Below are positions 5,929-45,084 of a DNA stretch of 64,000 nt, one piece after another; position 1 is the stretch's first letter; each line of letters starts with the position of its first letter. Source of the DNA: a virus. The stretch lies in UHGV virus genome UHGV-0132465; one strand, given 5' to 3'. A program made the translations under genes and the position numbers. The notes below the pieces were generated by a model. The model worked only from the letters and a program-made list of their open reading frames with translations, ran no database searches and had not been told where the DNA came from.

Positions 5929-6915
5929 TTATTTAACGTGTTTGAAAATACTCGCCAACTCGGTCATCGTCATGCGGGTGGTCTTCATAAGGTCTGTCAT
6001 AGCTTTTTCCATAATCGGTGATACTACCATGAAGTTACCTTTAGTGAAACCTTTGTTCCAATCGGTTACCAACAGAGGTTTGATTCCTGCCCCAAGACGC
6101 TCACCAGTTAAAGCACAGCATTTGCGGATGTACGCACTCTTAAATTGGCTGAAGGACAGATCAACTTTCATACCTGCATCGTAGAACGTTTGGCAATAGA
6201 AAGTGTAAGCCTTGGCAATCTCAACATCATCAGGCAGTGCAGGAACCTCTTCTGCAACCTCCTCTTCGACCTCCTGAGGCTCTTTTTCCTCTTCAAAGGG
6301 CTGTTGCACCATTTCTTCAATTTCTTCTGTCACAGGCTCGTTTACGATGTCTGAAATGTGTTTGTTGGCTGCACGCTCTGCCATGAAATTCTTAAAGTCC
6401 TGCATTGGTGACATATCTTCCTCCTCTTCGTCAAATAGTGCTAGTTTATCTTCTTCTGTCCCGTATTGCAAGATGAAATCTTCAAAAGTATATTCATCTT
6501 TTAATTCCTCCATCCTCTCTTCGCTCAGGTGGAGCATCATTTGTTGGACAATTTTTCGATCAGTTTTGTCCTTAATCAAGATTGCGGTCGTTTTATCTAC
6601 CAGACAATCCTTGAGAGAGTTGCACCGAAGTCCCACCACACAACAGTTATCAATTGCGTAAGGACCTTCATCGTTTATCCGCTCCAAAGATGGGTAGAAC
6701 GGATTCCCCAGCCCGTTTTCATCTGTGTGCATGTCAAAAGGAATAAGGGTGTAGTCGCATACCCCCTCTCCTAAAAGTTTTTTACCGAATAGGAGGTATT
6801 CTTCCCACGACAGGTCGAACACTATACCTCGTTTTCGGGCATTATTCTGTTTGCGTCTGTATTTTTTGAGCAGGCGTTCTAGCTCTTCTGGTGTATAATA
6901 TTTTTCAAGATTCAT
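5929..6915 (-). CDS. hypothetical protein with internal duplication and acidic linker
   Basis: two related segments (GIVFDLSWEEY... and KVDLSFSQFKSAY...) separated by a Glu-rich stretch; start chosen at MNLEKYY to avoid overlap with the divergent promoter region. Confidence 0.5.
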   Translation of the reverse strand: MNLEKYYTPEELERLLKKYRRKQNNARKRGIVFDLSWEEYLLFGKKLLGEGVCDYTLIPFDMHTDENGLGNPFYPSLERINDEGPYAIDNCCVVGLRCNSLKDCLVDKTTAILIKDKTDRKIVQQMMLHLSEERMEELKDEYTFEDFILQYGTEEDKLALFDEEEEDMSPMQDFKNFMAERAANKHISDIVNEPVTEEIEEMVQQPFEEEKEPQEVEEEVAEEVPALPDDVEIAKAYTFYCQTFYDAGMKVDLSFSQFKSAYIRKCCALTGERLGAGIKPLLVTDWNKGFTKGNFMVVSPIMEKAMTDLMKTTRMTMTELASIFKHVK

Positions 6916-6946
6916 GAGTTGTCTCTTGTGCTCTGTAGGTGAAGAA

Positions 6947-6975
6947 ATCTTATCAAGTGCCTCGACAGATGTCAA
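6947..6975 (-). promoter_or_regulatory. sigma70-like promoter for the minus-strand block (TTGACA-17-TAAGAT)
   Basis: consensus -35, 17-bp spacer, -10-like hexamer about 25 nt upstream of the 6915 start. Confidence 0.5.
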
Positions 6976-6988
6976 CCTCAAAAACGTA

Positions 6989-7017
6989 TTGACTTTACTA
7001 TAAATCCACGATATAGT
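6989..7017 (+). promoter_or_regulatory. sigma70-like promoter for the plus-strand block (TTGACT-17-TATAGT)
   Basis: divergent from the 6947-6975 promoter; about 40 nt upstream of the 7058 ATG. Confidence 0.55.
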
Positions 7018-7057
7018 GCACCCATTCGAAAGAAAACGAACACAGGAGCACTTAATC

Positions 7058-7957
7058 ATGGCAAATCTTAACAGCTTTAGCACTCGGTGGAAACAAGATA
7101 TCACAACCAATCTCTCAGCAGGTGATATCCTTTCTGCAATTTACGAGGCTTTGGATGATAAAGCTACTTCAAAATCGGTTTGTACCAACCCGCTAATTCC
7201 TATAGTAATGAAGGTTATTGAGCGTAGGCTGGTATCCGGATCTGATAAGTGGACATATCTGGATAATGGAGGCCACACTTACTCCAATGGCTATGTCGAT
7301 ATAAAAGTAGAATATGCGGTATCATATCGCCGGAGCGGCTCTGTAACTTTCAACTTCTCTGGTGGTTTCCGATCTCTGGCAACTTCACCTTTTGTTTCCT
7401 CAGAGGAGAAGTTTGAACTTCCGTTCCTTTGGATGATGGCTAACGCGACAGGCAAAACCCCCGTAAGCATTCGCGTAAAATACAACTACAACGGATCTAG
7501 TAAGATCTATGCCGAGAGTGTCTCAGCAAGTTTTTATTTTGTGATGGGGGATGGAATCCTCAAACATATAAAGATGTGCGATATGCATGATGTTATAAAT
7601 GAAGTGACTGATAAGAATGTTCTGGTGAAGGATCTCAACAATTTTTATACACCTGGAGACTATTACGTCAACCGTCCACTGTGTATCTTTAATGCCGCAC
7701 ACCCTTTAGGTGAGTATCTGATCGCCAATAGCGATATTGCCAATAACCGCTTCGAGGTAGCAAGAGTGCAGAATGAGGTGTTGACATCTTGCAAGAGCGG
7801 TGATAAGTTTACCGAAGAAGAGATGGGTGTTTTAGAAATGATGGGATATAAGTGTAGCCTTTGGGTGGATGAGGTGTTTAATGACGGCATCTACGGACAG
7901 GGTATTTACCCGTTAAAGAAGTATACTGATTCCAGTCTAATTTACGCGGAGATTTGA
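7058..7957 (+). CDS. hypothetical protein (300 aa)
   Basis: ORF with CAGGAG RBS; start moved from 7016 to the RBS-preceded ATG. Confidence 0.55.
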   Translation: MANLNSFSTRWKQDITTNLSAGDILSAIYEALDDKATSKSVCTNPLIPIVMKVIERRLVSGSDKWTYLDNGGHTYSNGYVDIKVEYAVSYRRSGSVTFNFSGGFRSLATSPFVSSEEKFELPFLWMMANATGKTPVSIRVKYNYNGSSKIYAESVSASFYFVMGDGILKHIKMCDMHDVINEVTDKNVLVKDLNNFYTPGDYYVNRPLCIFNAAHPLGEYLIANSDIANNRFEVARVQNEVLTSCKSGDKFTEEEMGVLEMMGYKCSLWVDEVFNDGIYGQGIYPLKKYTDSSLIYAEI

Positions 7958-30405: not shown

Positions 30406-30738
30406 ATGGTAACATTAGAAAGACGTAAAGCTATCGCCGCCACACTGGCAGATATCTTTTGGGATTGCAATTTAAAAGATACTCGAAATTGTGGCGCATC
30501 TGTAGATGTATTATTTCCACGACCTACCATTATTGCGATGGGTAACCTGCTGGATACAGTTACAGGTGCATGGGATAAGGAGGGCGGTTTCTATATCTGG
30601 CAACCTGTCTACGGAGCCTGGAAAGAGGTAAGAGGCGCTGATGACTTTGGGCCTACAGCCGCTAAGATGGATGGTTGGAAAATTTATGTTGGGAACGATA
30701 TGAAGCTGAAAGGTGAGATTGTTTACTGGTTACCTTAA
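30406..30738 (+). CDS. hypothetical protein (110 aa)
   Basis: ORF in co-oriented compact block. Confidence 0.5.
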   Translation: MVTLERRKAIAATLADIFWDCNLKDTRNCGASVDVLFPRPTIIAMGNLLDTVTGAWDKEGGFYIWQPVYGAWKEVRGADDFGPTAAKMDGWKIYVGNDMKLKGEIVYWLP

Positions 30739-30758
30739 TAAAACGCAGGAGATAAAGT

Positions 30759-31004
30759 ATGAACAAAGGGTGGACATTTGTAGACGGCGTTAAAAACATG
30801 CCTCTCGGAAAGTATATCGTAGCCATGGCTGACGAGAATGGTAATGTGGATTTCGGAGTTTGCGAGATTGTTCTTGCAGGATCTGGTGACTATGCCCACA
30901 AAACTGGGATAATTAACGGTCATTTCTACTTTGATTACAACCCTGTTGTGGCGTATATGGCTATGCCAGAGTTAGAGCTCCCAAAGGAGGGTGCAGATGT
31001 TTAA
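30759..31004 (+). CDS. hypothetical protein (81 aa)
   Basis: ORF with AGGAG RBS. Confidence 0.5.
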   Translation: MNKGWTFVDGVKNMPLGKYIVAMADENGNVDFGVCEIVLAGSGDYAHKTGIINGHFYFDYNPVVAYMAMPELELPKEGADV

Positions 31005-31194
31005 GCTTAAATCTGCATGGAACATTGCTGTGGGTGATGAGATCCGCATTCCGGGTGGGAAGACCGTTATGAAGATATCCCGTATTGAATACGAAGGCGA
31101 CCGTGTATTCCACATCTTTGCAGAAGATGGTCGGGAAATTTATGTACAAGCAGGCTCTCACATCTATATCCGTAAGAAAGGGGGTGACAAATGA
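30991..31194 (+). CDS. hypothetical protein (67 aa)
   Basis: ORF with AGGAGGG RBS. Confidence 0.45.
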   Translation: MQMFKLKSAWNIAVGDEIRIPGGKTVMKISRIEYEGDRVFHIFAEDGREIYVQAGSHIYIRKKGGDK

Positions 31195-31520
31195 CAGAGA
31201 TCATTATTTCAACTGCAGGGTATGTATTCCTGACAATCATTGCTCTGACCATTTTGGTGGCGGTATATGGATTTGTTATTCTACCTATTCTTGAGACAAT
31301 TAGTTTGTGTCGGTGTTGGAGAAAGGCTTACGGTCCACAGCCGTGGAGGGACTGGCCCCACCTGGTTCGCATAGCGTTCTCTTATGCTTATGATCACGCC
31401 AGCAGTGCATGCATAACCGGGTATCACGCTCACAATTGGAACTGGGAAGGGTTGGGTAGATGGAATGTTATAAAGACCATACCTCTACGTATGCACAAGC
31501 CTAAAAACAAAGACAGTTGA
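31191..31520 (+). CDS. hypothetical membrane protein (109 aa)
   Basis: hydrophobic N-terminal segment; ATGA overlap with upstream stop. Confidence 0.5.
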   Translation: MTEIIISTAGYVFLTIIALTILVAVYGFVILPILETISLCRCWRKAYGPQPWRDWPHLVRIAFSYAYDHASSACITGYHAHNWNWEGLGRWNVIKTIPLRMHKPKNKDS

Positions 31521-31550
31521 TACTTGAAAATCCCTGGCACATCAAGTATA

Positions 31551-31583
31551 AGGAGGATTTCTAAAATGGATTTCCTCCTTTTG
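31551..31583 (+). terminator. candidate intrinsic terminator (AAGGAGGA ... TCCTCCTT stem + TTTT)
   Basis: 8-bp inverted repeat followed by T-run after last gene of the block; could alternatively be RBS plus start of a 35-aa hydrophobic ORF (31566-31673). Confidence 0.4.
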
Positions 31584-31832
31584 ATATTTTACCTGGCCGG
31601 ATATTTTAAAATCCTTAGAAAATCAGAAAATGGATCGAAAACTAAAATGGATTTTTCAAGACAGGCGCGATAAGATGTGCTGCTCATTCTATCGTTCGCA
31701 CCGTACTTTAAGTCACTATTCCAGATTTTCCGCACATACTCTCACCCTTCTACCAGAACTTTCCCAGCTTACCTCTGACCTTTTATAACAATAAGTCCAT
31801 TATTATCAGAAAGTTTCGGCACATCTCTCTCG

Positions 31833-32010
31833 GTACTCGATCTGTTTTTCATTTCAAAGACCTGATTTTCTGAAAATTTTTCTCGATAAATTTCTTAGTA
31901 CTCGATCTGTTTTTCGTTTTCTGAATCAGATTTTCTGGAAATCGTTCCGGCGCTCGACCTAAAATTTTTGGGGACGAAATCGATTTTTCGTTTTCAGAAA
32001 TGGATTTTTA
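31833..32010. repeat. three spaced direct repeats (GTACTCGATCTGTTTTTC and derivative) with adjacent AT-rich tract
   Basis: exact 18-bp repeat at 31833 and 31898, degenerate third copy near 31980, about 65-bp periodicity, in an ORF-free 600-bp region. Confidence 0.6.
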
Positions 32011-32161
32011 AAATTTATATATGGGAATATTTTATTGGATATTGTTTTATAGGAAATTGTTACGGAGGGTAATTAGCATGCTAATTAAATTTATTAAATG
32101 CGAGGAGTTCTCATTTAGAATTTTGAATGATAATCATTCTCGTTTGCAGAATAACGGGCAC

Positions 32162-32313
32162 CCCCGGTGATTGTCTCCCGGCCCCTGTTGCCCCGGCTTG
32201 TTATTATAGTATCACACAGGACAAAGAAAGCAAGGATTTTTTGCATGAATTTTTAAACGATAATGATAACAGTTCTCATCTCATGCAACGCCCATCCCCG
32301 GTGGTTGTCTCCC
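32162..32313. repeat. GC-rich island with two direct repeats CCCCGGTG(A/G)TTGTCTCCC
   Basis: 18-bp repeats at 32162 and 32296 with one mismatch; all six frames open because of composition, no RBS. Confidence 0.5.
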
Positions 32314-32541
32314 CCGTCACCGGTGCCTGCCGTCCTTCCGATAAGTATATTGTGCCACCTAGCGGGGCCGCTGTCAACACCTTTTCAAAAAATTTTCTAA
32401 CCTGGTTCGTCCACCGCCGCAACCTGGCGGGGCCAACCATGCCGGGGGGCAAAATTATAAAAGTGGTTGCGCCTGGTCCTGAAAGGCAGTATAAAAGAAT
32501 CAGGAAAGAGAGATACCCAACAAGGCGAGGAGGAAAATAAA

Positions 32542-32712
32542 ATGAAAGGTAAAAATAAAAAAGATATCTCAATGAACTGCAAGGATATTAATGCAAAACG
32601 TGAAAAAGCGGCCCGTGATGCCCTGGTCAACTGGTTGGACTATGAAAAAAGGATGGTTGAAGCTGCAGGAGCTGCCGCCGGAGCTTTTTACCCTAAAAAT
32701 AATTTAAGATAG
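32542..32712 (+). CDS. small basic protein (56 aa)
   Basis: ATG after GAGGAGG RBS; first gene of the small-gene array. Confidence 0.45.
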   Translation: MKGKNKKDISMNCKDINAKREKAARDALVNWLDYEKRMVEAAGAAAGAFYPKNNLR

Positions 32713-32801
32713 CTATTGACAACGTGGCGAGTAACCTGGTATTCTTATCCACAAGATGAACAACACCGCTACACCATGCAGCTAACAGAGAGGAAAACAG
32801 C

Positions 32802-32999
32802 ATGAACGCATACGGCATTAAAGTACGTCGCAATATTCGCCAGGTGGTCACCGATCAAATGGTTTGCCGGGTGGATGTAACCATCAACAATGGGCAAGGT
32901 CTTTATAAATTCCGTCGCGGTCAGAGCTATACCCGGCAACAGCTTAATCGTTGCGCCCTGACAAAAGGACAGATCAACCACTGGTTTAATAAAAAATAA
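32802..32999 (+). CDS. hypothetical protein (65 aa)
   Basis: own promoter-like element and RBS. Confidence 0.5.
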   Translation: MNAYGIKVRRNIRQVVTDQMVCRVDVTINNGQGLYKFRRGQSYTRQQLNRCALTKGQINHWFNKK

Positions 33000-33003
33000 G
33001 TAT

Positions 33004-33032
33004 TGACATATAGTCCGACACCAAATACACTA
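33004..33032 (+). promoter_or_regulatory. sigma70-like promoter (TTGACA-17-TACACT)
   Basis: consensus -35 and spacing upstream of 33064. Confidence 0.55.
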
Positions 33033-33063
33033 AAAGCACAAAAGACACTGAGAGGATAAAATC

Positions 33064-33462
33064 ATGAAAACCACTACCTTTAATTTTGATAATGCGGACT
33101 TTTCTTTTTCTGATGTCAAGAACTGCCGTCGTGATCGTGGATTTTACAAGGCTTATAATCTGGTGGGCCTGGACGATGACAATAATTTGCACGAAGTAGC
33201 TGAGATCCGGTATTATGCCGCCGCCAGCGGGAACACTCAATACTGCGTTTTTTGGATTCACGACAACAAGAACAATAAGTACGGTTATACTGGCGGGAAG
33301 GCGAGCGGTCACGGTTACGATAAAGCTAATGCAGCACTTGAGAGCGCATTAAATGCTATGGGGATCACTGCCAACGGCTGGATCTATGAAGAAGAGTTTT
33401 TGTCGGCACTTGCTAACCACCTGGGCTATAAAAAGCACATTGTAACATGCGCCCACGAATAA
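33064..33462 (+). CDS. hypothetical protein (132 aa)
   Basis: ORF with GAGAGG RBS. Confidence 0.5.
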   Translation: MKTTTFNFDNADFSFSDVKNCRRDRGFYKAYNLVGLDDDNNLHEVAEIRYYAAASGNTQYCVFWIHDNKNNKYGYTGGKASGHGYDKANAALESALNAMGITANGWIYEEEFLSALANHLGYKKHIVTCAHE

Positions 33463-33468
33463 AAATTG

Positions 33469-33497
33469 TTGACACGCTGCAAAATTCAAGTAAACTA
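33469..33497 (+). promoter_or_regulatory. sigma70-like promoter (TTGACA, -10 TAAACT)
   Basis: consensus -35; -10 resembles the one inside the 45-bp repeated element. Confidence 0.5.
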
Positions 33498-33506
33498 ATC
33501 ACAAAA

Positions 33507-33525
33507 GGCGGGAAACATTCCCGCC
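33507..33525 (+). promoter_or_regulatory. 5'-UTR stem-loop GGCGGGAAACATTCCCGCC
   Basis: perfect 7-bp GC stem between promoter and RBS; near-identical copy at 36060. Confidence 0.6.
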
Positions 33526-33544
33526 AACACAAAGGAAAAAGATC

Positions 33545-33949
33545 ATGAATAAGAACGTACGCCGCATCATGAACGAGCTGGCAAACGATGAAAAAATTAT
33601 TGACATGCATTTGATCAACATTTGCCGCCGTTGTGTAACATATAACAACCGCGCCGCAAAAGCGCGTGAGATGAACGCAAAAGGCACCTTAAAGCCCTTC
33701 CAGGTGGTGGTAAAGGCCATTAAAGATGTAACTAATACGGCAAACCAGGTACAGGGGAACACCAACGAGAGTACCAGTATTGATCCGGCTTACATCATGA
33801 AACGGATCCGGACCTGCAAGAACAAAGAGCAAGTGTATAACGTCATAGACTGGTTGGATTCCATGGGCGACGTGGTGTACAATAGGTTTTCTGCAGCTAT
33901 CGAGATCCAGCTTGACAGGTTGGACGGGAAAGTACTGAAAACTTACTAA
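33545..33949 (+). CDS. hypothetical protein (134 aa)
   Basis: ORF with AAAGGAAAAAG RBS. Confidence 0.5.
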   Translation: MNKNVRRIMNELANDEKIIDMHLINICRRCVTYNNRAAKAREMNAKGTLKPFQVVVKAIKDVTNTANQVQGNTNESTSIDPAYIMKRIRTCKNKEQVYNVIDWLDSMGDVVYNRFSAAIEIQLDRLDGKVLKTY

Positions 33950-33951
33950 GT

Positions 33952-33996
33952 TTATTTTTAGATGGCCTTGACTCCAGGGCCATCAATAAAGTAAAC
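33952..33996 (+). repeat. 45-bp conserved intergenic element, copy 1 (TTATTTTTAGATGGCCTTGAYTCCAGGGCCATCAATAAAGTAAA)
   Basis: contains inverted repeat GATGGCC/GGCCATC and promoter-like TTGAYT ... TAAACT; copies at 34582 and 38318. Confidence 0.7.
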
Positions 33997-34029
33997 TAAT
34001 CTCAGTTAAGCGAAAAAGGGGGCTTTAAG

Positions 34030-41208: not shown

Positions 41209-41419
41209 TCCTTATTGACTAGAAAACAGGGCTTGCAATGGTCCTGTTTTTTGTTATACTTATTCCACGGCAGGCACCTGGCGACGGGGGGAGACAATCA
41301 CCGGGCCTGCCTGTCATATAAGAACTATAAAAACCGTTGACATCTGCCAGGGGGTGGGGTAACATTTATCTTGAAGGGGCAAAAGTGCCCACACAACAAC
41401 CAGAAGAGAGGAAAACATT

Positions 41420-41692
41420 ATGTCAAGCTGGATTAATCAAGAAGTCGAATCACGTTTTAATGCTATCTGGGATCTCGTAGAAAAAGAGGACGGAACATCA
41501 AGCCCCTACCTCAACAATTTGGAATTCCATTTTGTGGAAGCGATGAACGCAGAACATGATCACGAAGGTGGCGCGGATGAGTTCGCTAAAGGTTATGGCT
41601 TTAACAATGCCAACGAAATGATCGAGTCGGTTGTACTCCAAGCCGAGGAAGATTATCAATTAAAAACGCTTGAATTCTGCCGCCGCAAGTAA
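41420..41692 (+). CDS. hypothetical protein (90 aa)
   Basis: own TTGACA promoter, UTR hairpin GGGGCAAAAGTGCCC, AGAGAGG RBS. Confidence 0.5.
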   Translation: MSSWINQEVESRFNAIWDLVEKEDGTSSPYLNNLEFHFVEAMNAEHDHEGGADEFAKGYGFNNANEMIESVVLQAEEDYQLKTLEFCRRK

Positions 41693-42623: not shown

Positions 42624-43208
42624 GTCTGCTCTTCTCCTACCATAAACGGCCCTACCTGGCAAGTGGAATAATTGACTAGCCATCAATCCCACACACTGTA
42701 TAAATATACATGGAAAATAACTATTGCATAATTTTTCATTGTGTGGTAGCAAGGCCATTTTTACCCGTTTTCTCTCCCAAAATTGCACGTAATGCCGCTA
42801 TTGCACAAAATTTAACCTGATGCACATCTTCAACATCTTGTCAATAACTAAAAATCTTTATAAGTCATACACTTACACAACCATAAAGCCGTGTTCTACG
42901 TGAAAAATCGAGTATAACTATAGCCGCCAGATCTCAGAATTTACGTACGTTCACCATTCTATAGCCTGCAAAGTATTTATTCCAACCACAGAATAACGGA
43001 ATAGTCAATACCTGCATAAAATAATTATTCGTGTAAACTGCATAACATAAATCAGCTCAGGTGTCAACATTTTTCGTAAGCAGTTCGAAATTGTCACGAT
43101 AAGTTATTATACACAAAGAAATCTTTAGTCGTCTAATGGTTACTATACATTACTAATCTGACTGGAATCATTAGATGACTAAGAGAAAGATAAGAAATAA
43201 TTAATAAT

Positions 43209-43518
43209 GTAATTGTTTTACCTGTAACAATAAGGCAACTATGCAAACGAATGGCATGGCGCGACGGAGTCGCGACATAATATAAAAGCAGTAACCATCA
43301 CCCCCGTGATAGTTTTTCTGCAATCTATTACTCAGATCATAGTTGCCTTGTATTTAGTTAATCATGACATAACAAGCAAGGCAACTATAGATCTTCTAAT
43401 AGTTGCCCTGCTTTTATATTATGTCATAGAAACGCCCGAAGGGGTGACCTAGTCACCTGGCATAGCCAGCGAAAGATTATTATCTTGTTAATTGTTTTCA
43501 TGCAAACGAATGTCATGG
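43209..43518. repeat. cluster of palindromes and iteron-like repeats (AAGGCAACTAT / ATAGTTGCC x4; GCAAACGAATGNCATGGC x2; GGTGAC-cta-GTCACC)
   Basis: multiple direct and inverted copies within 300 bp of an ORF-poor region between convergent gene blocks. Confidence 0.6.
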
Positions 43519-44268
43519 CTTATCATCTATGCGTGAACTATCCAGGCGTAAACAGTCTATGCGGGAACAATCTATACGGGAACAGTGAGGCATGCAATAG
43601 TAACAACTGTTATTGTATCCGGTGTGTTGAGTATGCCCGGTGTGTCACTATTATGTCACATTATGTCAGACAAGTTTTTCTCCTCTTTGTCAAGTGCTGC
43701 ATGAAAAATTTACAAACTGGTATGGTAGCATTTTTGCGGCCCTGTTTACATTCAGAAATGTATGTATAATCCTTGGTGTGTGGGCGTTTAGACGTCTGGA
43801 CGGTCAGAAGTCCGCAGGTCAATATCTAATCTATTGGTTGCTAACTATATCCCACACAAATAGTAAGAAATATAATTGTTATGTGCGTAAACAGTAACCC
43901 ATGTTATCAATCCCTGTATGTATCGCCAGTGGTGCGCATAATGGGTATTATGTTAAATTGCCCGTAATGATAACTATTCTCACAATGATAGGTATTCTCA
44001 TTCATCCCCACAAGATAGATTGCAAATGTTGTGCCACTGTGTGAACGGCCTGGTCTATTAATTTGCCTCACTGCCTCGATATTTGAGAATTATTATAAAA
44101 ATGAGAAGTATTCCCATTCCGTCCGCCTGGCAGCACTCCTGTAGGACAAGCACAAAATCGGGGCATAACTGACCTGTTCAGATATTTCTGGCTGACTCTT
44201 CAGGTCTGTGTGGGAAAAGCCAACCTCTCCGGCGGCGGGGTAGGGGTCAATTAAAAAATTTATGCGGT

Positions 44269-44325
44269 GTATGAAACCCTCTTCAGGCAAGGTGTGTATT
44301 ATGGTATGAAACCCTCTTCAGGCAA
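44269..44325. repeat. exact 22-bp direct repeat GTATGAAACCCTCTTCAGGCAA x2, 35 bp apart
   Basis: perfect duplication; flanked by related G-rich motifs at 44226-44250 and 44371-44396. Confidence 0.7.
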
Positions 44326-45084
44326 TGATATTTGTGGGTGTGATATTTGCTGGAAAGCCAGATATGACGGGACTCCCGGCGGGGCAGGGGTAGTACAGAC
44401 AGGGAAAATGTGGGGATGTAGTTGGGGAAATTGATCAGACAGGTAGAGTATGGAATATGTTATGAATATGTTAAATATGGAGGGTGAATATCTGTAGGAT
44501 TTGTGTGTAAAATCAAAGACTTAAGTGGTGTTGTGGTATTTTCTATAAATAATTCAAGTTTAATAGGTAATATTTGTCTCTATCCACTTTGTGTGGTAAA
44601 CAGATTTAGATGAAATTGGTTTACAAGTGTATACATAATATACAAATTAAAGATACAAGAAACCCCCCTCCCCCTTCGGCTACCATTCACCTTTTCCTCT
44701 GACTGGTACTTAAACACTTATTCAGACTCTTCAGGTTATCACCCATATACTATATGGCAGTGACTGGTGTCCTCCGGCCCCTCTTTCGTCACCCGTCCGC
44801 TTCGCCAAGCTAATGCCATAGCCAAATGTTCGGTTGTTCACCCTGTTCACTCAGGTGTATCTCCATACCCCTTCAAACCGAAGAGAACAGAAAACCCGAA
44901 TTACTCGGTAAAAGAAAAGAGAAGAACTTAATTTTATCAAGATAGGCAAGAATGTCAAGGGATGACTGCTCACTAAACAAGCAAACAGTCATGTGTGGTA
45001 GGTAAGTGATTGTAGTGGTGGAAAATTTAGTTGAAAGATGTGTTATAGTGCTCCCAGCACTTTAGCCGGGCAGCTAATTGTGTG

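Follow-up and report, generated by a model that had tools for sequence, protein, structure and literature searches.

Several described systems resemble parts of the locus considered here. Fur boxes are familiar from the upstream regions of iron genes in bacteria and of a few cargo genes in prophages (stx1, sitABCD), and Fur operators usually overlap the promoter that they repress. The PeSL (promoter-early stem-loop) cassettes of Arbiol, Comeau and Krisch (2010) are said to be regulatory cassettes of T4-type phages. The primary origin of T7 consists of tandem promoters followed by a tract rich in adenine and thymine (AT-rich), while in oriF and oriG of T4 a promoter leads into a DNA-unwinding element and replication is primed by an R-loop; P2 and 186 carry face-to-face promoter switches, and put of HK022 is a cis-acting leader RNA. 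The locus in question is an island rich in guanine and cytosine (GC-rich) at positions 32130-32540 of a stretch of 64,000 nucleotides (nt) of UHGV virus genome UHGV-0132465, called the window throughout, which a preliminary description made from the sequence had offered as a candidate structured RNA or foreign insertion. The anatomy is very probably one of non-coding, deeply conserved, thrice-repeated cassettes of promoter, leader and operator. As to function, we lean tentatively, and somewhat short of an even chance, towards cis-regulatory DNA in which Fur-operated promoter-leader cassettes drive non-coding leftward transcription, mechanism included. Promoter activity, Fur binding, gating and the purpose of the transcripts are what we infer from this anatomy.

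Each cassette consists of a predicted early promoter of the host sigma-70 type, a G-rich 5' leader of 40-60 nt with the invariant box GGAGACAAYCACCGG, and a predicted Fur operator downstream, and the leader of unit 1 additionally has a small covarying hairpin and a 3' arm able to pair with the leader's 5' end. The parts on which the argument turns are the following, in window coordinates.

31521-32542, without strand: gene-free control region between two co-directional (plus-strand) early-type genes, the island being its right-hand 40%.
32384-32392, without strand: A-run of variable length (a difference of 1-8 nt from phage to phage), upstream of P_L2 on its UP-element side; the open reading frame (ORF) of 137 amino acids (aa) is frameshifted by it.
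32377 to 32349, minus strand: predicted leftward sigma-70 promoter P_L2, with TTGACA, a 17-nt G+C-rich spacer ending in TG, and CACAAT (10 of 12 in the scan).
32296-32323, minus strand: unit 2 box (second repeat), in transcript sense GGAGACAACCACCGG (32312 to 32298), in the loop of the hairpin CCGGTG/CACCGG.
32262-32280, without strand: Fur-like operator 2, weaker, with core TGATAACAGTTCTCA at 32264-32278 and 3 mismatches.
32233 to 32203, minus strand: predicted leftward sigma-70 promoter P_L1, with -35 TTGCTT (32233 to 32228), a 19-nt spacer and -10 TATAAT (32208 to 32203).
32178-32196, minus strand: covarying hairpin of 4 base pairs (bp), with arms 32178-32181 and 32193-32196 and a loop of 11 nt, rich in C as read on the plus strand and in G as read in the leftward RNA.
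32162-32179, minus strand: unit 1 box (first repeat), in transcript sense GGAGACAATCACCGG (32178 to 32164), its sequence conserved in five genera.
32150-32160, minus strand: 3' arm of the leader, in sense UGCCCGUUAUU, conserved as UGCCYGYYAUUC, which can pair with the 5' end of the transcript (32189-32193 and 32200-32205).
32124-32144, without strand: predicted Fur operator 1, with its 7-1-7 core TGATAATCATTCTCG at 32128-32142, centred on C32135.
41233-41304, plus strand: unit 3, the third copy of the cassette, with promoter TTGCAA-16-TATACT at 41233-41260 and a leader with box GGAGACAATCACCGG at 41290-41304.

The repetition is beyond what composition yields. The preliminary description had reported two repeat copies at 32162 and 32296, each followed by short GC inverted repeats, and both observations hold: the 18-nt direct repeat reads CCCCGGTGATTGTCTCCC at 32162-32179 and CCCCGGTGGTTGTCTCCC at 32296-32313, a repeat of that length with at most one mismatch occurs in 0 of 5000 dinucleotide shuffles of the segment, and the inverted repeats are CCGG at 32178-32181 with CCGG at 32193-32196, and CCGGTG at 32298-32303 with CACCGG at 32318-32323. 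The similarity extends beyond 18 nt, to 27 nt at 85% identity (32153-32179 and 32287-32313), and a second repeated piece, AT-rich, lies further upstream (AATGATAATCATTCTC at 32126, AATGATAACAGTTCTC at 32262). Read on the minus strand, the repeat is the box GGAGACAAYCACCGG, 20-55 nt downstream of the leftward sigma-70 promoters; it contains a -10-like hexamer, GACAAT or GATAAT, and a hypervariable linker of 3-5 nt separates it from the 3' segment UGCCYGYYAUUC. The region of the unit 2 box hairpin is invariant in 12 Vequintavirus genomes.

It is unit 3 that gives the cassette its direction. Its box precedes a second promoter (41337-41365) and the gene 41420-41692, in an orientation opposite to that of units 1 and 2, and the unit is conserved across genera, in 217 phage records; Fur-like palindromes stand about 40 nt past its leader in the Seunavirus and Certrevirus relatives. 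Because promoter and box follow one another co-directionally with this gene, the order of the cassette is fixed as promoter, G-rich leader with box, and Fur operator; units 1 and 2 have the same order, and therefore point left, against the flanking genes (the small genes around the gap 31521-32542 are all on the plus strand). At 41220-41260, moreover, a hairpin resembling a terminator carries the -35 (TTGCAA) of the unit 3 promoter in its loop, and its T-run forms the promoter spacer; its stems differ in relatives with pairing retained, a composite of terminator and promoter that recalls the PeSL cassettes of T4-type phages.

The hexamers, the spacing of 16-19 nt, the A at -11 and the T at -7 looked for in sigma-70 promoters are all present in P_L2, P_L1 and unit 3. 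The region of P_L2, AAAAGGTGTTGAC, resembles the early-promoter consensus of Certrevirus, AAAA(N3)TGTTGAC (PMC7344957), and its -10 is CACAAT, CATAAT or CAAAAT among the relatives. P_L1, with a predicted start near 32196, has invariant hexamers in the 12 Vequintavirus genomes, and the orthologous leftward promoters of other genera read TTGCAA-17-TATATT, TTGATC-16-TATTAT and TTGACC-17-GATAAT. In all 30 lineage types there are leftward promoters that score 8-12 of 12, with spacers that are unrelated in sequence and mostly G+C-rich. Downstream of a third leftward promoter the other genera have a small minus-strand ORF (L005 572-763, L007 2808-2993, L009 2776-3198, L010 2781-3047) belonging to DUF7170 or to PHROG families without an assigned function; Vequintavirus is without it.

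The operators were scored with the 19-bp consensus GATAATGATAATCATTATC and with the 7-1-7 inverted-repeat model TGATAATNATTATCA, from which 32128-32142 departs by 2 mismatches. Gene-free DNA holds all three of the window's best matches to TGATAATNATTATCA (32128, 43968 and 44084), and matches with at most 3 mismatches number 21, as against 5.5 +/- 2.2 in shuffles. The segment 32128-32146 (TGATAATCATTCTCGTTTG) is identical over 19 of 19 nt to the promoter of E. coli mntH, where it occurs in 3973 of 5426 E. coli genomes with the palindrome centred 56 nt before the start codon; at that place, -56 of mntH, Table 4 of Chen et al. lists a Fur site of 19.9 bits, and the authors cite studies of Fur repression there (PMC2189734). 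When E. coli genomes were compared with the whole island, only these 19 nt of the operator matched and no homologue appeared, and a search with a second palindrome gave 9 uninformative matches. Operator 2 is TGATAATCGTTCTCA in most other Vequintavirus genomes, nearer to the consensus, and the other genera have arrays of 1-6 Fur-like palindromes at the corresponding place. Operator 1 lies at about +55 to +75 from P_L1, and the only promoter that it overlaps is a weak rightward candidate, TTGAAT-18-CAGAAT, in which the base at -11 varies among lineages. Another large gene-free region of the window, 42800-45080, which by position is the 'non-coding' box of the rV5 paper, has four Fur-like palindromes (43966-43984, 43984-44002, 44082-44098 and 44100-44118), two of them among the top three of the window.

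Conservation of the island is deep. The window belongs to a Vequintavirus (rV5-like) coliphage, and 122 phage records, nearly all from Vequintavirus, match 31500-33000 with identities of 80-95%; the island is present in 122 of 122 close relatives. A core of 60-75 nt (window 32108-32181) recurs at 81-94% identity in Seunavirus, Mydovirus, Certrevirus and Phapecoctavirus, in each of which it lies in a comparable gene-poor gap of 0.7-1 kb at the same position, so that a gene-free region of about 1 kb, with the island as its right half, is present in at least five genera. The comparison of related genomes for presence or absence that the preliminary description had suggested thus finds the island always present, with no such polymorphism among close relatives and only 32440-32540 swapped for another allele; a foreign insertion or the remnant of a mobile intron is contradicted by its occurrence in all 122 close relatives, by the core in four further genera and by the lack of an E. 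coli homologue.

Some observations on individual records belong here. Four GenBank records begin or end within the control region, namely L004 (PQ002170.1), L005 (PP681140.1), L006 (LC739538.1) and OR786310.1; the end of phiWec189 corresponds to window 32134, and R7 annotates an 'attL' repeat at 12-91. Genome termini at the control region were considered and set aside, the four record ends being at different points and no data on physical ends having been found. In L058 (IMG/VR 2974574029_000001) an insert of about 900 nt at roughly 6250-7080, between unit 1 and the GC-rich element, contains the start of a minus-strand gene and may be a mobile gene inserted in the control region. The 16-18 UNVERIFIED 'Campylobacter phage' records (MG0656xx, e.g. 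L066) are rV5-like coliphage genomes with about 87-93% identity here, which suggests a wrong host assignment or contamination.

That the island does not code for protein follows from several lines of evidence. ORFs of 137, 98, 77 and 45 aa overlap on its two strands, and there is no Shine-Dalgarno sequence ahead of ATG 32127. An alignment of 12 Vequintavirus genomes has its variable columns over 32127-32384 spread 12/11/11 across the three positions modulo 3, as against 12/9/42 and 4/8/16 in the flanking genes, a distribution that excludes coding in all frames on both strands; codon periodicity is absent in every frame throughout the gap 31521-32542. The alternative codons of the 137-aa ORF comprise 6 synonymous and 24 non-synonymous ones, in MiataMamis the frame is interrupted by a stop at codon 8, the variable length of the A-run gives a different C-terminus in every phage, and the lengths of the ORF across relatives range from 7 to 137 aa. 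The preliminary description had seen several open frames on both strands, no ribosome-binding site and no convincing coding signal, and on all three it was right; protein-like conservation by codon position among homologues, which it had named as grounds for withdrawing its view, was sought and is not there. What can be said for a true gene (rV5 ORF198; PHROG 14993) is that in 10 of 11 relatives the same ATG begins an open frame of 91-109 aa and that the 137-aa ORF matches PHROG 14993 at E = 7e-58. The frame stays open because the underlying DNA hardly varies, the family was built from these same annotations, which makes the match circular, and a Pfam search with the 137-aa ORF gave no match; together with the absent periodicity, the excess of non-synonymous changes, the missing Shine-Dalgarno sequence and the differing C-termini, this leaves a protein-coding gene scarcely credible. 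A small leftward ORF was dropped for want of periodicity in any frame. The annotations of related genomes place inconsistent small ORFs in the gap, and that annotators differ is itself a sign that none is real; the gap ORFs of many GenBank records (rV5 ORF198-199, PHROG 14993) are to be regarded as artefacts.

The composition noted in the preliminary description is likewise as reported, with 49.4% GC at 32130-32540 against 34.3% in the left part of the gap (31521-32129), in a window of 43.3%; the richest cores are 32150-32200 (66.7%) and 32285-32450 (61.4%). Its description of the island is accurate for the limits it drew, and the feature is larger, taking in the gap 31521-32542 and the third repeat copy at 41290-41304. 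It was also correct that the island is non-coding. What it overlooked, the Fur palindromes and the promoters on the minus strand, accounts for the greater part of both the conservation and the GC-richness: the island is GC-rich because promoter spacers and leaders are G+C-rich. The spacers of early-type promoters are unusually G+C-rich (32355-32371, 41343-41359 and related loci), often with a CC(A/T)GG (Dcm-type) site, and account for part of this composition.

In the predicted leftward RNA of unit 1 one small element covaries. The 4-bp hairpin stands directly past the box (after CTC, as viewed on the plus strand), with a pyrimidine-rich loop of 9-18 nt across lineages, and occurs with six types of stem, CCGG/CCGG, GCGA/TCGC, CGGG/CCCG, CGCA/TGCG, GCGC/GCGC and CGCC/GGCG. 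With the arms set by fixed flanks, two lineages placed by best fit and the pairs counted by script, 92.6% of cells are paired; shuffling the 3' arms lowers this to 56% and sliding them to 31-56%, and a value as high occurs in 0 of 5000 shuffles; a MAFFT alignment of the loop-trimmed hairpins was set aside because its register had shifted. The 5' arm has an alternative pairing with the conserved 3' segment UGCCYGYYAUUC. In 11 of 16 lineages the 5' and 3' ends of the leader pair better when read in the sense downstream of the promoter, and G.U pairs together with one compensatory change favour the minus-strand sense of this helix. Other structures were considered and rejected. A weak 4-bp helix CGGG/CCCG, the only one proposed by RNAalifold on a MAFFT alignment, at a 5-nt hypervariable linker, has wobble pairs that conflict between lineages and competes with the better-supported pairing of the leader ends. 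Two proposals judged by eye were also dropped, a minus-strand G-quadruplex whose G-runs are not conserved in Certrevirus, and a CsrA sponge whose GGA motifs are about as frequent as composition predicts.

To the left of the cassettes, from the iterons up to 32125, the DNA is AT-rich (30% GC), and homologous iterons, TCTCGATCG, occur in Seunavirus and Certrevirus. The remaining features of the control region are these.

31833-31850 and 31898-31915, plus strand: two exact 18-nt iterons GTACTCGATCTGTTTTTC, each with GATC, and a degenerate third near 31962-32008.
32096-32116, without strand: decayed Fur-like palindrome AAATGCGAGGAGTTCTCATTT, right half-site intact and left degenerate; a full palindrome in other genera.
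32400-32540, plus strand: GC-rich variable segment with a mosaic breakpoint near 32440.
32467-32472 (TTGCGC) and 32490-32495 (TATAAA), 17-nt spacer, plus strand: probable weak promoter of the gene 32543-32712, as read from the sequence.

The allele at 32440-32640, which includes the N-terminal half of the gene 32543-32712, is shared with MiataMamis only and differs in ten other Vequintavirus genomes. Within the AT-rich tract there is a perfect 18-bp palindrome, TAATTAGCATGCTAATTA, at 32070-32087, nearly invariant among Vequintavirus. The motif AAATGGATTT occurs five times within 31550-31660 and 31833-32008, and the same two intervals hold three 47-nt iteron-like repeats spaced 65-74 nt apart, two of them with GATC. 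A perfect DnaA box, TTATCCACA, one of two in the window, stands outside the gap at 32745-32753 and overlaps the -10 of the promoter before the gene 32802.

How the cassettes might work can be outlined. Host RNA polymerase would start at P_L1 and P_L2 early in infection and make non-coding leftward transcripts; Fe2+-Fur bound 55-200 bp downstream would act as a gate or roadblock, so that the reach of the transcripts into the AT-rich iteron tract (31830-32120) would be set by the iron status of the host, and the alternative pairings of the leader would perhaps modulate this gating. A number of points weigh against such a scheme. The chief difficulty is that the operators lie downstream of good promoters and do not overlap them, and the palindromes could be recognised by a phage protein instead of Fur. 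The 19-nt spacer of P_L1 is suboptimal. Between 31400 and 32350 there are no terminator-like sites on the minus strand, which leaves a discrete leftward RNA undefined. Folding of 32150-32345 is no better than that of shuffles (z = +0.44 for the plus strand and -0.62 for the minus strand), and the leader helix is not predicted in every ortholog, single leaders having z-scores from -3.0 to +0.8. In relatives the GC-rich element between the two leftward promoters folds as a terminator-like 12-bp hairpin (with 3-4 G.U pairs) on the plus strand only, which argues that a rightward RNA exists too. Finally, the literature search returned no transcript, start-site or Fur-binding data for these phages; likewise it found no transcriptome of the group, nothing on this control region and nothing on Fur boxes in virulent phage genomes.

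It remains to weigh the favoured reading, of leftward cassettes under Fur control, against other explanations of the same DNA. A free-standing structured non-coding RNA, an intron remnant or a recent foreign insertion, as the preliminary description had it, would suit a segment that is GC-rich and repeated, with inverted repeats, and in which one hairpin covaries. The Rfam covariance-model search that the description had recommended gave no match at E <= 10 over window 30500-34000, and four related loci gave chance microRNA matches only; the folding z-scores are those of shuffled sequence, and the island keeps its position in every relative, in other genera as well, and has no E. coli homologue. 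This reading is thus very improbable, and what survives of the proposed structured RNA or riboregulator is a small riboregulator-like element, the one covarying 4-bp hairpin, likely on the opposite strand. A serious rival, if an unlikely one, supposes that the Fur box controls, in classical overlap, a rightward promoter with TTGAAT at 32123-32128, an 18-nt spacer and CAGAAT at 32147-32152. Its product would be a C-rich plus-strand RNA, either the leader of the early genes from 32543 or, in other genera, a small RNA of about 200 nt, and this rightward RNA would meet P_L1 and P_L2 head-on, with iron setting the balance of rightward and leftward transcription. The operator does overlap the -35 and the spacer of this candidate, as in mntH; TTGAAT is retained in most lineages, and the segment from operator to box is free of indels in all lineages compared. 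The 12-bp hairpin of the relatives, which forms on the plus strand only, is followed by a U-rich tail, and C/U changes opposite G preserve its pairing, while the pyrimidine-rich loops of the plus strand would suit an anti-Shine-Dalgarno small RNA. On the other side, the essential A at -11 is not kept (Mydovirus has CTGAAT, several Certrevirus-like lineages CGGAAT and one Vequintavirus, MiataMamis, CTAAAT), transcription is predicted to start near 32159, within the conserved segment of the leader, the box of unit 3 has the opposite sense relative to its promoter and gene, and no plus-strand terminator lies downstream in the window.

A transcription-primed replication origin, in which the G-rich transcripts of the tandem promoters form R-loops and open the adjacent tract of AT-rich DNA with its palindromes and iterons, has a similarly low probability. 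What the anatomy of an origin asks for, promoters reading into an AT-rich tract with iterons, is found here: read leftward, the elements follow one another as promoters, G-rich leader, a 30%-GC tract with palindromes and exact iterons with GATC, the same order holds in other genera, and a primase-helicase like that of T7 and a polymerase of family A are encoded in the phage family (PMC3606486). R-loop priming, however, needs neither a sequence-conserved box nor palindromes of Fur consensus, and unit 3 lies in a spacer of ordinary kind between genes, upstream of one of them. DnaA boxes show neither enrichment nor clustering in the gap, and there is no skew signal beyond that of transcription; the published analysis of rV5 could not locate the origin by skew either (PMC3606486). 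Of lower probability again is a decoy, whereby amplified palindromes would titrate host Fur and derepress iron uptake by the host, to the benefit of iron-dependent phage enzymes. Several Fur-like boxes per genome are found in gene-free DNA only (32128, 32264 and four at 43966-44118), the arrays of relatives reach six palindromes, and multicopy Fur boxes do titrate Fur, which is the principle of the Fur titration assay (PMC2189734). Cis coupling is nevertheless favoured by the fixed, indel-free spacing of operator and leader and by the recurrent order of promoter, leader and operator in three units, and a gain within a single lytic cycle is speculative. Just as doubtful is a leader RNA, formed by the box and its hairpins, that acts in cis and independently of Fur on RNA polymerase or on its own transcript, for example through processive antitermination of the put type or as a promoter-proximal pause site. 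A sigma-70 promoter invariably precedes the box by 20-55 nt, the box has its -10-like hexamer, and three mutually complementary segments could give alternative helices; against this, there is no similarity in Rfam, the structure is weak and non-uniform, and no terminators that would need overriding were identified.

The leftward, Fur-operated cassettes accordingly stay in the foreground here, and the arrangement suggests iron sensing by a virulent phage. A bolder extension, which we consider rather unlikely, is that virulent phages of the Vequintavirinae and Stephanstirmvirinae have placed host Fur operators in a conserved cassette in which Fe2+-Fur, as iron sensor, gates transcription into the iteron-bearing AT-rich region, that the firing of an origin or an early decision is made iron-dependent, and that the box GGAGACAAWCACCGG, recognised by RNA polymerase or else by some factor of the phage, is a leader element of a new, cis-acting kind. 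The literature search brought up no report that strictly virulent phages have conserved Fur operators in their control regions. If the cassettes are functional, early transcription or replication in rV5-like phages would be adjusted to the iron of the host. Such phages are candidates for broad-host-range therapy and carry a ribosome hibernation factor; function would bear on phage efficacy at iron-limited infection sites and would provide a handle on the unmapped origin and the early regulation of the group.

Comparison with the described systems places the control region beside several of them. With the origins of T7 and T4 it shares tandem promoters that read into an AT-rich tract with iterons beyond, and a G-rich RNA would favour a stable hybrid; it differs in its host sigma-70 promoters, its sequence-conserved box and its Fur-like palindromes. 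The closely spaced opposed promoters in a phage control region, and a conserved element within the first tens of nt of the transcript, recall P2, 186 and put. The present phage is virulent, however, neither sequence nor structure matches put, and in other genera the only gene of the region is the small minus-strand ORF. The operators are like that of mntH, and like Fur boxes generally, in the identity over 19 nt (32128-32146), in the 7-1-7 palindrome and in the clustered arrays of relatives, which resemble host Fur sites; here, in contrast, the predicted site is in a virulent phage, lies downstream of well-predicted promoters and overlaps only a weak rightward candidate. With the PeSL cassettes, lastly, the locus has in common an early sigma-70 promoter and a stem-loop repeated between small early genes, a mosaic breakpoint that adjoins the island, and, in unit 3, a terminator hairpin with the -35 in its loop; it departs from them in that there are three copies in 64 kb, that two of these oppose the genes around them, and that the conserved part is the leader box together with the Fur operator.

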